33,079 bases of DNA from Thermodesulfobacteriota bacterium (GTDB taxonomy: Bacteria; Desulfobacterota; GWC2-55-46; JAUVFY01): NCBI GenBank assembly GCA_036482575.1, contig JAZGJJ010000114.1, forward strand, positions 1-33,079, in the 5' to 3' direction. Under the pieces are notes generated by a model. It made no database searches. It saw nothing but the letters and a program-made list of their open reading frames with translations, and had not been told where the DNA came from. This document shows positions 5,215-9,665 of this stretch, piece by piece. A program made the position numbers and the translations under genes. The number at the start of each line of letters is the position of its first letter. Within the stretch, counting starts at the first letter, position 1.

Positions 5215-6180
5215 TCACCATGTAAAGGTAGGTTCGTAGTAGTGGCGCAGCTGCCAGTTGGCGTCCTTGTAGGACTGGGCCGCCCCGCCTATGGCGGCCT
5301 GGCCTTCGGTATCGACCTTGCCCGCCCTGAACTTACCGACATCTATCTGCCTCTGCCTCTCGACCCTGTAGTACTCGCCGACGTCCATGGGCGGCAGGTA
5401 CTGTCTCAGCCCGTAAGCCGGGGTGTGGCAGGCGATGCAGCCGTTGCCCTTGGCCGCGTAGCCGCTCGCGTAAATGCCCTGCAAGAGCAGGCAGAAGATC
5501 CCCACCGGAAGAGAGACGGCGAGAGCCCACTTCAAAACCCCCTTCTTGAGCCTGATCGCCTGCGGGACTACGAACACCGCCGCCAGGAGAATGAGCGCGG
5601 CTACGACGGCGATCGTACCGGACGTCTCGCCATCCTCTCCCAGGGTGGAAAAGTCGGCCCTGTAGAGGCTGTAGACGAATATACCGTAGACCAGGACAGA
5701 AAGGGCTATATTAACGCCCTTCCAGACACCCCCCCTGTCCGCGAGCCGTCCCCCTTTCTTGAATATAAAGGGCACGAGCACAAGGAACGTAAGGACCAGG
5801 GCCGGGATGAAAAAAGTGCCGAGAGAGAGCCACTTGACCGAATCGCCCGTAAGGTACCAGAACGGCTGGAGAAGCAGGAAGAAGTACCACTCCGGGGAGG
5901 GCACGTACATGCCCTCGTCCGGTAAGGCCATGTTGAAGTCCACGGGCACGCGGAAGAAGAAGGCCAGCGTCATCGCGATAAGCACGACCCCGCCCGCCAC
6001 AAGGAGGCCCTTTACGAAGTGGCGCGGCCAGTACTTATGGAACTCCTGGGGATACGGCGGCGCGTACCTGGGGTCGTTCACCTTCTCCTCTTCAGGCACC
6101 CCGGTTACCCCCGTTTCTTCAGCCGCCCCGGTTACCCCCTCTTCTTCAGGCACCCCGGTTGCCCCCTCTTCTTCAGCCAC
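5215..6180 (-). CDS. Cytochrome b C-terminal / b6f subunit-IV-like membrane protein fused to a C-terminal mono-haem c domain
   Basis: PEWY Qo-site motif (VPSPEWYFFLLLQPF), about five hydrophobic helices, then CIACH. The acidic N-terminus is encoded by a 27-nt tandem repeat. GTG start 1 nt after the upstream TGA. Confidence 0.88.
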   Translation of the reverse strand: MAEEEGATGVPEEEGVTGAAEETGVTGVPEEEKVNDPRYAPPYPQEFHKYWPRHFVKGLLVAGGVVLIAMTLAFFFRVPVDFNMALPDEGMYVPSPEWYFFLLLQPFWYLTGDSVKWLSLGTFFIPALVLTFLVLVPFIFKKGGRLADRGGVWKGVNIALSVLVYGIFVYSLYRADFSTLGEDGETSGTIAVVAALILLAAVFVVPQAIRLKKGVLKWALAVSLPVGIFCLLLQGIYASGYAAKGNGCIACHTPAYGLRQYLPPMDVGEYYRVERQRQIDVGKFRAGKVDTEGQAAIGGAAQSYKDANWQLRHYYEPTFTW

Positions 6181-6198
6181 CTCAGTTACCCCCCTTGA
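6091..6198. repeat. 27-nt tandem repeat, about 4 copies (period 27, units beginning at 6091, 6118, 6145, 6172)
   Basis: The 'ttcag' landmarks are exactly 27 nt apart. The repeat encodes E-E-(E/T)-G-(V/A)-T-G-(V/A)-(P/A). The last, degenerate copy spans the stop of 6182-6667 and the GTG start of 5215-6180. Confidence 0.85.
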
Positions 6199-6667
6199 AC
6201 TCGCACTTGCACAGATCTTTCCTTATGTATGTTACGAGATTCTGTATCTCGGTATCGCTGAAAGAGGTGCCCCAGTCCGGCATGTTCTCCGAAAGGCCGG
6301 CGGACTTGCCGCCTTTCTTTATGAGGTTGAAGAGGAACTCGTCGGTGCGTTTCCCGATAATGGACTTGTCCGTAAGGTTGCGGGGTTTTACCTCGAAACT
6401 CTCGGCAAGCGGGCCGTCGCCCTTTCCCTCGAAGCCGTGGCAGGGTACGCAGTTTCCCTGGAAGTTGCCGGCCCCGGACTGCATGTCACCCCCCCAGACA
6501 CCCCGGCTTACGGCCTTGGCGTCCTTCTCACTCATATCCACGGGGTTTTCCTCCGCAAGGACGGGGAGGCCGAAAAAGACGCCTGTAAGGACGGTTACGA
6601 CCGCGCACACATGCAAGAACTTTATTTCCTTTATTTCCATTATTTCCTTTATTCCCATTCTTCCCAT
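6182..6667 (-). CDS. Membrane-anchored or periplasmic mono-haem cytochrome c (class I) with C-terminal LCKC motif
   Basis: CVPCHG, GDGPLA, PRNLT, NMPDWG, ...DLCKCEFKGGN. Start set to ATG 6667 (GGGAGG 7 nt upstream) rather than the track's TTG 6673. Confidence 0.85.
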   Translation of the reverse strand: MGRMGIKEIMEIKEIKFLHVCAVVTVLTGVFFGLPVLAEENPVDMSEKDAKAVSRGVWGGDMQSGAGNFQGNCVPCHGFEGKGDGPLAESFEVKPRNLTDKSIIGKRTDEFLFNLIKKGGKSAGLSENMPDWGTSFSDTEIQNLVTYIRKDLCKCEFKGGN

Positions 6668-6692
6668 TCCCAAACCTCCCGGTATCTGCCCC

Positions 6693-7325
6693 TTAAAGCG
6701 GGCCTGATATGCCGTGGCGCTTCACCATCCTGAAGTGGAAGGCCAGCACTACGATAGTTATAAACGGAAGCAGCCACACGTGTATGGCGTAGCTCCTGCC
6801 TACGGTAAACGCCTCGAGTATGGGGCCCTTCAGGGCCTCCCCGATAATGGGCCAGGTCCCTATGTAGTCGGTCCAGATAACGAGCGTCCAGTAGCCCCTC
6901 CAGTCCCAGGGGAGGATGGTACCGGTGATGAGGAAGAGCGTCACGACGAGGAGCATCATCACCCCGGAGAGCCAGTTGAGCTCCCTGGGCTTTCTGAATG
7001 CCTTGTTGTAGAATACCGAGAAGAGGTGTGTCAGGAGAGTGGCCATGAGCAGCGTGGCCACCCAGCGGTGCAGGCTCCTCGTGAACGAACCGAGCGGCAC
7101 CTCGTTGGTCATATAGATTACGCTCTCGAACGCGTTCTCCGGCCTCGCCACGTAGAAGAACATCATGAAGAAGCCGCTCAGGAGCTGCAGGAGTATCAGC
7201 GTAAGGGAGATGCCTCCGAAGCAGTAAAAGAAGTTAACGTGGTTCGGGATGGGAAGGTCCCTCTTCCTCGCCCTCCAACTCTTAAAGCCGGTTCTTTCCT
7301 CAAGCCAGTCCGTCAGTCCCGCCAT
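6693..7325 (-). CDS. petB: Cytochrome b6-type protein (four-helix N-terminal cytochrome b)
   Basis: NFFYCFGGISL retains the Cys that binds haem ci in b6f. Also SLHRWVATLLMATLLTHLF (helix B His pair), KPRELNW, and IHVWLLPF...AFHFRMVKRHGISGPL (helix D His pair with the b6-type C-terminus). Confidence 0.93.
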   Translation of the reverse strand: MAGLTDWLEERTGFKSWRARKRDLPIPNHVNFFYCFGGISLTLILLQLLSGFFMMFFYVARPENAFESVIYMTNEVPLGSFTRSLHRWVATLLMATLLTHLFSVFYNKAFRKPRELNWLSGVMMLLVVTLFLITGTILPWDWRGYWTLVIWTDYIGTWPIIGEALKGPILEAFTVGRSYAIHVWLLPFITIVVLAFHFRMVKRHGISGPL

Positions 7326-7421
7326 ATCAGCACCTGTCTTCCTTAAAATTTATACAGCGCGTCTATTTATGAGATTGTGTTTAAAAAGCCCACAAAGTCC
7401 GGCCTTTTCCCTCTATATCCC

Positions 7422-7856
7422 TTACGAGGCGTACATGGAAGGGGTCTCATCGTACGTCTCGCCCGTGAAGTCTATCTTCCAGCTGTTCGACTCCTCGTCC
7501 ATCTCGAGATTTATGTCGGTCTGCGTTATGAAATAATCGTTGAACATCGAGGCTACCCTGTACTCTATGGTCACGACCGCTACGCCGTCTTCTACGGTGC
7601 TCCCGATTATCTTGACGTCCATGCCCTTGGGGTACTCCTTGACCATGTTCTTGAATATGTCTTCGTGCATCTCATAGTGCTTCTTGCTTATAAGCCTGTA
7701 TGCCTCGCCGAGCGTGGTGGTCCCGCCCTCCTCTACGTAGGCGTAGAACCTGGCAACCACTTCCTCGGGCGTCTCGGTGGGCTCTACGCCCCCCTTGCCG
7801 CAGGATACGACGGAGAGGGCCGCTATGAGCAGTATCGGAAAAAAACTCTTCAGCAA
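7422..7856 (-). CDS. Small lipoprotein, NTF2-like / DUF4878-like
   Basis: Lipobox LSVVS-C after a hydrophobic leader. TTG start with GAGGA SD. The family call is from overall resemblance only. Confidence 0.7.
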   Translation of the reverse strand: MLKSFFPILLIAALSVVSCGKGGVEPTETPEEVVARFYAYVEEGGTTTLGEAYRLISKKHYEMHEDIFKNMVKEYPKGMDVKIIGSTVEDGVAVVTIEYRVASMFNDYFITQTDINLEMDEESNSWKIDFTGETYDETPSMYAS

Positions 7857-7952: not shown

Positions 7953-9665
7953 TTAGAACCGCTCTACGCGGGCCGGAGCCGTGATCACCCCTGGTTCAAC
8001 CAGTTCTCTATGCTGCTGGGCTTCCTCGTAGTCACCGGTTACCAGGTTGGCCTGGCCCTTGGGACCGTCCACGAAGAACGTAGCCCTCATCTCCAGATGC
8101 AGCGGGCCGCAGAAGTGCTGGCAGAATATCTCGTACTCGCCGGCATAGTCCGCGACGAACTCGCTCATGATCGACATGCCCCTGTTGGCCGTGAGGTTCG
8201 TCCTCAGGCCATACGGACCGTAGATGGTGAAGCCCATCTGTACGTCCGGGTTCTTGGTGATACCCGCGGCCTTGTCGATGTTGGTGACGATTATCCTCAC
8301 CTTGTCGCCCTTGTTGACCCTTATCTGCCTGGGTACGTAGCCGTAGCTGAAGGCCTTGACGTGGACTTCCTTCACGCCGCCCTTCTCGACTATACCGGGC
8401 TTCCCCTTGTCCCTGGGAAGTATGGTGACCTTCGCGCTACTGCGGTGGGACGGATGGACCTCGGTGATGGGCTTCTTTATCAAGTTGACCGCCTGCCCCA
8501 TGTCCCACTGCTTGATCTTGCTGGCGAAGATGACCTTGGCGTTGTGGGGCTCGCCGTCGACAGGTATTATCCTGAGCGTCCTGCCGTAGGTCGGGCTCTT
8601 CTCGTCCACGTCCAGCATCTCGTGGTTCACGGGCCAACGGATGCCCGTGGGGCTCCACAGCCCTGTGGAGAACTTGTTCAGGGCAAAGACCTTGGTGTCG
8701 TCGGCGCTTATGGCGATGTGCCCGATCCTGTAGTGAATCGGGAACTCGTCGGCCACCGCGAGCTTCTCGAGGTCTATCTTGACGACGGCGTCCGCGACGA
8801 AGCAACTCGTGTAGGAATACCTGCCATCGCTCCTGAAGACGTTGTGGAGCGGACCGGCGCCCGCCGGTATGACCTTCTTAACCGCCAGCTTGTCCACGTC
8901 GATTATGGTTACCGTCGCGGAGAGCTTGTCGGCGACCTGTACGTACCTTCCGGTCGGAGAGACGTTCGTGCCGTGGGGGTTCTTACCAACCGGTATTTCC
9001 TTTATGAGCTTGAAGGGGTTGGTGGAGAAGACACCCACTGTGGAGTGGTAGTAGTTGCCTGAGAATACCATCTCCTTCCTGCCGGGCTTGCTGACGTCGA
9101 GGTAGTCCGGGGCGCTGGGCGCCGGGCCCCAGTCGATGATCTGGGCCTTGCCGGTCGCTATCTCGATCTTGGCCATCTTACCGGTATACTCGCCGGTGCC
9201 GTAGAGGAACTTGCCGTCCTGGGACATCGATATGTGATGTACCCCGAACGGGAACGGCAGGCCTATCAACCTCTCGAGCGTTCCGAGCTGCAGGTTGATG
9301 ACGCCGATGGTGTTGGAGCCCTTGTCGTTGACGTACATATACCTGCCGTCGGGCTTGAGGTTCGAACCGCCGGCGTTGGTCGGAGCGCTGAACAGGTTCT
9401 CGTGAAGGTCCACACCCACCGGTATATGACGGTAGGTCCTCATGCTTGGGACACCGATTACAGCCACCGCGCCGTCGAGGCCGCCAGCGTTATAGAGAAG
9501 CTGGTCGTCCTTCAGCGGAGCATCGTTGGGGCTCTTTTCGGTAACGTGCCAGTCCCTCGCATCCTTCTTTGCGGCAAAGGTTGCATCGGGCGCACCCGCG
9601 AAAACCACGAGCGCTATGGCTGCTGACAATAGACTTATCTTAGTTACTCGCACGTTTCTAGTCAC
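7953..9665 (-). CDS. nosZ: Divergent nitrous-oxide-reductase (NosZ)-like protein: Sec signal, beta-propeller, C-terminal CuA cupredoxin domain
   Basis: The C-terminus IVTNIDKAAG...DVQMGFTI...YEIFCQHFCGPLHLEM carries C-x3-C-x3-H-x2-M (nt 8088-8123) and parallels the NosZ TNID...HGF...C.WFC..LH.EM region. Propeller motifs VHHISMSQDGK, GKNPHGTNVSPTGRY...KLSATVTIID, GAGPLHNVF and IHYRIGH resemble NosZ CuZ-ligand blades. No twin-arginine in the leader. GTG 9665 abuts the SD, so GTG 9653 is a plausible alternative start. Confidence 0.75.
   Translation of the reverse strand: MTRNVRVTKISLLSAAIALVVFAGAPDATFAAKKDARDWHVTEKSPNDAPLKDDQLLYNAGGLDGAVAVIGVPSMRTYRHIPVGVDLHENLFSAPTNAGGSNLKPDGRYMYVNDKGSNTIGVINLQLGTLERLIGLPFPFGVHHISMSQDGKFLYGTGEYTGKMAKIEIATGKAQIIDWGPAPSAPDYLDVSKPGRKEMVFSGNYYHSTVGVFSTNPFKLIKEIPVGKNPHGTNVSPTGRYVQVADKLSATVTIIDVDKLAVKKVIPAGAGPLHNVFRSDGRYSYTSCFVADAVVKIDLEKLAVADEFPIHYRIGHIAISADDTKVFALNKFSTGLWSPTGIRWPVNHEMLDVDEKSPTYGRTLRIIPVDGEPHNAKVIFASKIKQWDMGQAVNLIKKPITEVHPSHRSSAKVTILPRDKGKPGIVEKGGVKEVHVKAFSYGYVPRQIRVNKGDKVRIIVTNIDKAAGITKNPDVQMGFTIYGPYGLRTNLTANRGMSIMSEFVADYAGEYEIFCQHFCGPLHLEMRATFFVDGPKGQANLVTGDYEEAQQHRELVEPGVITAPARVERF

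Follow-up and report, generated by a model that had tools for sequence, protein, structure and literature searches.

A methionine stands in place of the first CuA histidine throughout a large, uncultured branch of clade III lactonase-type nitrous-oxide reductase homologues

To our knowledge, cytochrome oxidases and nitrous oxide (N2O) reductases are taken to share an invariant CuA ligand set of two cysteines, two histidines, one methionine and one carbonyl. A gene in a 33,079-nucleotide stretch of DNA from Thermodesulfobacteriota bacterium (contig JAZGJJ010000114.1, positions 1 to 33,079, of assembly GCA_036482575.1; hereafter the window) raises the question of whether one of these ligands has been exchanged in nature. 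The gene, a homologue of lactonase-type N2O reductase (L-nosZ; protein, L-NosZ), lies at 7953–9665 on the reverse strand, begins with GTG, ends with a stop codon at 7953–7955 and encodes 570 amino acids according to the open reading frame (ORF) list and its translation. A first-pass annotation, made from the sequence alone, had proposed that its product carries methionine where NosZ has the first CuA histidine. Does this methionine truly stand in the ligand column, is it confined to one gene, and what kind of copper centre would it make?

The residue in question is Met477, encoded by ATG at 8235–8237 (reverse strand) within the upstream ligand block TNIDKAAGITKNPDVQMGF (8229–8285, reverse strand); it occupies the position held in Pseudomonas stutzeri NosZ by His583, the N-terminal CuA histidine. 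Codon-by-codon inspection placed it 38 residues before Cys515 and bore out the statement that the downstream Cys-Cys-His-Met cluster is intact: positions 8088–8123 (reverse strand) encode the CuA loop CQHFCGPLHLEM, running from Cys515 to Met526, in which C515, C519, H523 and M526 correspond to C618, C622, H626 and M629. The C-x3-C-x3-H-x2-M pattern, with its two bridging cysteines, C-terminal histidine and axial methionine, is thus present here, and it is invariant in the clade. No histidine occurs between T461 and C515, the only other one being H517 within CQHFC.

The register was established by three methods that concur: phmmer, MAFFT and hhalign. Searched against PDB chains with phmmer, M477 fell on residue 583 of P. 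stutzeri NosZ; the three best chains were identical save in that column (F, A or W), being the H583F, H583A and H583W mutants, and the phmmer matches together with the Foldseek entry names identify the Met477 column as the one mutated in 7AQ6, 7AQ2 and 7AQ9. A MAFFT alignment with four annotated, plasmid-encoded NosZ proteins (Paracoccus, Azospirillum and Halomicrobium for clade I, Hymenobacter for clade II) set DVQMGF against DLTHGF, DITHGM and DVPHGF, with D474 and G478 invariant and a 6-residue insertion upstream as the sole gap in the CuA block. In the same alignment, the canonical motif given by the first-pass annotation, TNID...(S/T)HGF, agreed with the real clade I and II sequences. In an hhalign comparison (probability 100, E 7.9e-64) of a profile of 65 clade members with an 11-sequence canonical NosZ profile, the column of the Met coincided with that of the invariant His. 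The annotation had allowed that another register or an incorrect canonical motif might undo its claim; both possibilities were examined and neither materialized, a wrong register being ruled out by the concordant alignments. The N-terminal in-plane histidine of canonical CuA is absent from this protein, and Met477 fills its column.

The protein itself is, judged from its sequence, a predicted Sec-exported clade III lactonase-type NosZ and not a classical NosZ. Its best family match was NF052460, the NCBIfam model of the clade III lactonase-type nitrous-oxide reductase, at 695.9 bits over model positions 1–479 of 480, which is 4 bits short of the 700-bit equivalog cut-off; TIGR04246 (clade II, 187.8 bits) and TIGR04244 (clade I, 148.5 bits) reached neither of their cut-offs of 625. 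Clade mates scored above 700 (P0008, 722; P0115, 764; P0075, 786; P0044, 825), the equivalog model accepting most Met-type members at 722–825 bits, and the top score of 914 went to P0124, which represents the cluster containing the validated Desulfitobacterium nosdiversum enzyme. Database relatives are mostly named only “beta-propeller fold lactonase family protein,” and with such generic names and a score just under the cut-off, automatic annotation will miss the gene as nosZ. Pfam matches comprised YNCE (PF21783), Lactonase (PF10282), nos_propeller (PF18764) and Cupredoxin_1 (PF13473). An AlphaFold2 (AF2) model built on 65 homologues (predicted local distance difference test, pLDDT, 85.2) has seven four-stranded blades followed by a cupredoxin, so that the lactonase/YncE-type seven-bladed propeller, the C-terminal cupredoxin and the predicted Sec export that define the group are all found here. 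The 50 best Foldseek matches of the model in the PDB were all nitrous-oxide reductases (E ~1e-32). Their template-modelling (TM) scores of ~0.5 and root-mean-square deviation of 16 Å fall below a full-length rigid superposition, the fold match itself being clear, and we attribute this to the two domains apparently being arranged differently in the monomer model.

Whether homologues share the methionine was a question that the first-pass annotation had left hanging; they do, and the residue is fixed across a large sub-clade rather than specific to this gene. It occurs in 121 of the 121 closest protein clusters (≥61% identity). In a joint alignment, for which distant relatives were drawn from a sensitive search of 1.8 billion cluster representatives, Met477 is found together with C515, C519, H523 and M526 in all 150 members of the group, and every other lineage has His, including clade III-like lineages with the 6-residue insertion. 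We also scanned one genome per prokaryotic species, taking the best 80 of 121 loci; His-type genomes entered the comparison only via protein clusters. All 80 loci (51–81% identity) encode the Met, and all come from metagenome-assembled genomes (MAGs), none from a cultured organism. Their hosts are assigned to “Deltaproteobacteria”/Desulfobacterota, Nitrospinota, Nitrospirota, Gallionellaceae and other Nitrosomonadales, Zetaproteobacteria, Magnetococcales, Alphaproteobacteria and Gammaproteobacteria. So uniform an occurrence of Met among close homologues, clade members and genome loci lies well outside chance expectation. The four remaining CuA side-chain ligands are invariant across the ~230 sequences formed by the 150 members and the 80 loci. 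Searches for the gene in sequencing runs found it in DNA metagenome runs only and in no RNA runs.

In trees rooted on clades I and II, clade III was monophyletic with 100% support, with the window protein nested inside it. The Met group formed one clade (Shimodaira–Hasegawa-like approximate likelihood ratio test, SH-aLRT, 97% in IQ-TREE; local support 96% in FastTree) nested among His-bearing clade III lineages, which implies that His is ancestral and that Met was gained once and never reverted. His (CAY) and Met (ATG) codons differ at all three positions, so the change was no one-step accident. On this phylogeny the Met dates from the origin of the largest branch of clade III, which is entirely uncultured, and has been strictly retained ever since. 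The variant defines a clade within a family described in 2025 and is no isolated peculiarity. The clade III literature surveyed, which excludes the primary description (He et al., 2025, Nature 646:152), makes no mention of a Met in CuA. One L-nosZ locus, L052 (JAUXSK010000029.1), is labeled Candidatus Moraniibacteriota, a phylum of the Candidate Phyla Radiation (CPR). It is sister to locus L057 from an uncultured Gallionella MAG, with end branches of 0.015 and 0.03; so short a distance probably means that the contig was misbinned and not that a CPR member has an N2O reductase.

Enzymes whose hosts are known N2O reducers lie outside the Met branch. The 90%-identity cluster of the His-type protein P0124 includes the D. 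nosdiversum Sab5 protein (UniRef100_P0DXY7), and that of P0275 includes the Sporomusa acidovorans DSM 3132 protein (P0DXY8); these two organisms make up the clade III N2O reducers in a table published in 2026, which credits He et al., 2025, and lists no Met-type host (PMC13274427). Aligned with the window protein at 43–44% identity, both validated enzymes have His in the first CuA column (PAPMHGF and PAPVHGF). The joint alignment contained 150 Met-type clusters vs. 19 His-type clade III sequences, of which 14 belong to the branch of the two validated enzymes.

What, then, might the exchange do to the site? In P. stutzeri NosZ, the N-delta of His583 is a ligand of CuA1 and its N-epsilon makes a hydrogen bond to Asp576; in an alternative state the side chain is rotated away by ~130 degrees and bonds Ser550, a flip that has been proposed as an electron-transfer gate (PMC8179356; PMC11573801). 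In the window protein, Asp576 is retained as Asp464 and Ser550 aligns with Ala438 (phmmer, MAFFT). Taking the invariance of the other four ligands over ~230 sequences as the mark of a functional metal centre, we consider it most likely, with a moderate degree of confidence, that Met-type proteins would have a still-binuclear Cu2(S-Cys)2 electron-transfer site in which a thioether replaces the gating imidazole. The Cu2(mu-S-Cys)2 core would be retained, one copper being bound by His523 and the carbonyl of residue 517, and the other by the two thiolates and two thioethers, from Met477 and Met526; alternatively, Met477 may merely pack against a three-coordinate copper. A thioether can neither be protonated nor flip, so the His-gated, proton-coupled electron entry that has been put forward for canonical NosZ could not work in the same way; entry would instead be ungated and pH-independent. 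The reduction potential would be higher because the softer ligand would stabilize Cu(I), and electrons would most likely come from the adjacent c-type cytochromes and b6c-like module. The suggestion in the first-pass annotation that a His-to-Met change would alter redox properties or gating thus seems reasonable, and N2O reduction by the Met branch is plausible.

The Met clade differs from its relatives by more than one residue. H80 (9426–9428), H207 (9045–9047; H211 in the His type) and C288, all on the reverse strand, are invariant in it and absent from His-type clade III, and Asp246, Arg446, Glu510, a 4-residue insertion (S357–Y360) and a conserved 36-residue C-terminal tail are likewise confined to it. 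With this many clade-specific features, the CuA change was accompanied by wider remodeling. Residue 517 (C-x-H-x-C; His at 8115–8117, reverse strand, the Trp620 position) is H in 134, T in 15 and Q in 1 of the 150 Met-type proteins, and His517 occurs in none of 35 His-type or canonical proteins. Among the 80 species loci it is H in 60, Q in 12 and T in 8, and H and Q interchange at least four times on the tree.

Two relatives have lost their copper sites. P0122 (L086:1198–4617), from a Nitrospinota MAG (GCA_016234205.1), is a 1139-residue paralogue, 58% identical and nested in the Met clade, that lacks both CuA cysteines and the second His, has Pro in place of Met477, and is also without three putative CuZ histidines of the propeller (H143, H144 and H374) and H80. 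It has an additional C-terminal region of ~580 residues, in which no Pfam match was found, and its gene has type II secretion genes and one for a metallophosphatase as neighbors; L078 (JACRGN01), a further contig from this assembly series, encodes an ordinary L-NosZ of the Met type. To judge from these losses P0122 looks like an exapted copper-free propeller. Decay of Met477 along with the copper sites supports a role for this residue in the site. The partial protein P0123 (450 residues; Dehalococcoidia MAG) represents a sister lineage of the Met clade; it has His in the 477 column and is without both cysteines and the second His (FYNPRFSGPLATEM), a second, independent CuA loss near the Met clade.

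Several points weigh against a binuclear site with Met477 as a ligand. AF2 confidence is moderate near the site, with mean pLDDT in 10-residue blocks of 66–74 over residues 461–480 and 511–530. Zhang et al. in 2021 are reported to have found that CuA assembled in every His583 variant but that electron transfer was sustained only with His, Asp or Glu; if only a protonatable residue works at 583, Met would be inactive unless the mechanism differs. H80, H207, the usual H517, C288 or the C-terminal tail might also matter instead of Met477. That last thought can be sharpened into a rival explanation in which the ligand has been relocated, with His517, His80 or His207 providing the imidazole or protonatable group and Met477 serving only as second-sphere packing. 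The restriction of His517 to the Met type, present in 134 of 150 and in none of the 35 comparison proteins, would fit this, as would the clade-wide invariance of H80 and H207, neither of which His-type clade III shares (it has H211), and the disappearance of H80 from the copper-less P0122. P0122, however, keeps H207, and at residue 517 the 80 species include 12 with Gln and 8 with Thr, with at least four H/Q switches, so that His517 is not an obligatory ligand; as a universal substitute it is ruled out, being Gln or Thr in a quarter of species. In canonical CuA, moreover, the equivalent of residue 517 donates its backbone carbonyl to the other copper and its side chain points outward. We consider relocation rather improbable.

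Of the other explanations, an artefact (a misplaced register, errors in sequencing or assembly, or a pseudogene undergoing decay) has a negligible chance of being right: three alignment methods agree around the invariant D474 and G478, the block holds no alternative His, the same residue recurs in hundreds of independent assemblies, and the reading frame is intact with the remainder of the protein highly conserved. More serious is the possibility that the Met-type branch is no working N2O reductase, having a different copper centre or no electron delivery and serving another function. The two tabulated clade III N2O reducers both have enzymes of the His type, every Met locus among the 80 comes from a MAG and none from a culture, copper-less forms have arisen (P0122, and P0123 in the sister lineage), and the gene neighborhood is unlike that of the validated type, where MacB/ABC transporter genes and a NapC-type cytochrome adjoin. 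Yet the seven propeller histidines that match validated L-NosZ are all invariant; the other four CuA side-chain ligands are unchanged throughout 230 sequences, which implies strong selection on a metal site; the genes adjoin cytochromes; the NCBIfam equivalog model accepts Met-type members at 722–825 bits; and a groundwater study found a nosZ-like gene of this type expressed together with denitrification genes (PMC11033732). On balance we regard a loss of N2O reductase function as unlikely. If it were nevertheless the case, survey counts of “clade III nosZ” would overestimate N2O sinks. A binuclear site with a thioether at position 477 remains our preferred reading.

The remaining parts of the protein are those expected of an L-NosZ, all encoded on the reverse strand. 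A Sec-type signal peptide is predicted from the sequence at residues 1–31 (9573–9665; VTRNVRVTKISLLSAAIALVVFAGAPDATFA), in line with an N-terminal helix of low pLDDT at residues 6–32 of the AF2 model; inspection of the N-terminus found no twin-arginine (RR) motif. The seven-bladed beta-propeller (8466–9509) contains the putative CuZ histidines H88, H143, H144, H231, H274, H316 and H374, whose codons were verified and which are invariant in 65 homologues; all seven are the same as in validated L-NosZ, and all but H144 align with invariant histidines of clade I and II NosZ (phmmer, MAFFT, hhalign). Clade III proteins without exception, and so also the validated enzymes, have His88-Glu89 (9399–9404) where canonical NosZ has the CuZ HH pair, and two histidines, His143-His144 (9234–9239), for the single one of blade 2; this suggests that, compared with clades I and II, one CuZ ligand may have changed blades. 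The C-terminal cupredoxin (CuA) domain covers residues 425–534 (8064–8393) according to Pfam, phmmer and AF2: Cupredoxin_1 spans residues 431–516, CuA domains of ba3 oxidase subunit II match residues 432–532, and AF2 strands extend over residues 424–534. Its upstream ligand block carries the clade III-specific 6-residue insertion relative to clades I and II (AAGITK region), which His-type clade III sequences also possess and to which they align gap-free, and the carbonyl ligand of CuA would come from the backbone of residue 517. The C-terminal tail of the Met-type clade occupies residues 535–570 (7956–8063), with L541, G544, Y546 and A549 conserved; validated His-type enzymes stop directly after the cupredoxin domain.

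Downstream, a series of co-oriented genes (5215–7856, reverse strand; Pfam, NCBIfam) likely supplies electrons to CuA. An exported NTF2-like protein of 144 residues (7422–7856), whose weak matches to MecA_N and DUF6612 stay under the Pfam cut-offs, is encoded between L-nosZ and the cytochrome b gene, and is followed by a cytochrome b6-like protein (6693–7325), a mono-haem cytochrome c (6182–6673) and a 321-residue membrane protein with a C-terminal CxxCH haem motif (5215–6180), all on the reverse strand and the two cytochromes assigned by Pfam and NCBIfam. Further neighbors are two Vgb-like propellers and more cytochromes c, downstream, and an RNase G gene. Scans of ten flanking ORFs with Pfam and NCBIfam found no match to the accessory genes nosDFYL or nosR/nosB, and no MacB or ABC genes. 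At the His-type locus L085:9617–17146, a Logan contig encoding P0124, the order is cytochrome b, a 191-residue protein, a FixH/YtkA-like protein, a MacB permease, an ABC ATPase, a BNR/sortilin-like propeller, a second MacB permease, a cytochrome c and a NapC/NirT cytochrome.

The consequences depend on how far the thioether reading extends. With less than even confidence, we propose that a thioether may take the place of the in-plane His in the proteins encoded by most environmental “clade III nosZ,” giving the first natural CuA-type centre of this kind, which would be ungated, pH-insensitive and of higher potential; that bulk, on the same tentative footing, would span Nitrospinota, Nitrospirota, Gallionellaceae, Zetaproteobacteria, Magnetococcales, Desulfobacterota and others. 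If so, the entry site would suit high-potential cytochrome c donors, these enzymes would work by a mechanism unlike that of any N2O reductase investigated to date, and their N2O-sink capacity could not be taken for granted on the basis of the two validated His-type enzymes. A natural, clade-wide His-to-Met exchange would also be a ready-made test of the His-gating model and of the tolerance of the CuA core for an all-sulfur copper. Met-type sequences far outnumber His-type among the clade III sequences retrieved, and activity has been shown only for His-type hosts. Recent surveys put clade III nosZ at 10–40% of the nosZ genes found in some habitats (PMC13477213). Estimates of the biological N2O sink depend directly on whether the Met branch reduces N2O and on the redox and pH conditions under which it would do so.

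Among known systems, the closest are the L-NosZ enzymes of D. nosdiversum and S. acidovorans, whose hosts are the N2O reducers tabulated for the clade (PMC13274427). At 43–44% identity they share with the window protein a Sec signal, a lactonase-type seven-bladed propeller with C-terminal cupredoxin, the 6-residue insertion ahead of the first CuA ligand, DxHE replacing the HH pair with HH at 143–144, and the C-x3-C-x3-H-x2-M loop, and their type of locus likewise has an adjoining cytochrome b gene and no nosDFYL. They differ in having His as first CuA ligand, Tyr at C+2, H211 instead of H207 and no C-terminal tail, and in the MacB/ABC transporter and NapC-type cytochrome genes that adjoin. Canonical NosZ of clades I and II (P. 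stutzeri, PDB 3SBP) has the same propeller and cupredoxin fold and shares six of seven CuZ His columns and four of five CuA side-chain ligand columns at ~25% identity; relative to it, the window protein is shorter, has no nos accessory genes among its ten flanking ORFs, and has Met for the first CuA His and, in the HH pair, Glu for the second His. The P. stutzeri His583 variants (PDB 7AQ2–7AQ9: H583A, D, E, F, N, W and Y; Zhang et al., 2021, JACS 143:830), chains of which are the best PDB sequence matches to the window protein, alter the same ligand and keep the others of CuA; they are laboratory mutants, with no H583M among the deposited P. stutzeri NosZ entries listed in the Foldseek matches, whereas the Met described here is natural and fixed by selection throughout a clade. 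PmoD departs from the canonical CuA motif, H-x34-C-x3-C-x3-H-x2-M, altogether: its atypical CuA-type centre forms without the canonical N-terminal His, in an unrelated cupredoxin and across a homodimer, from a different cluster of residues (PMC6189053). Unlike PmoD, the window protein keeps the canonical loop intact and exchanges a single ligand.

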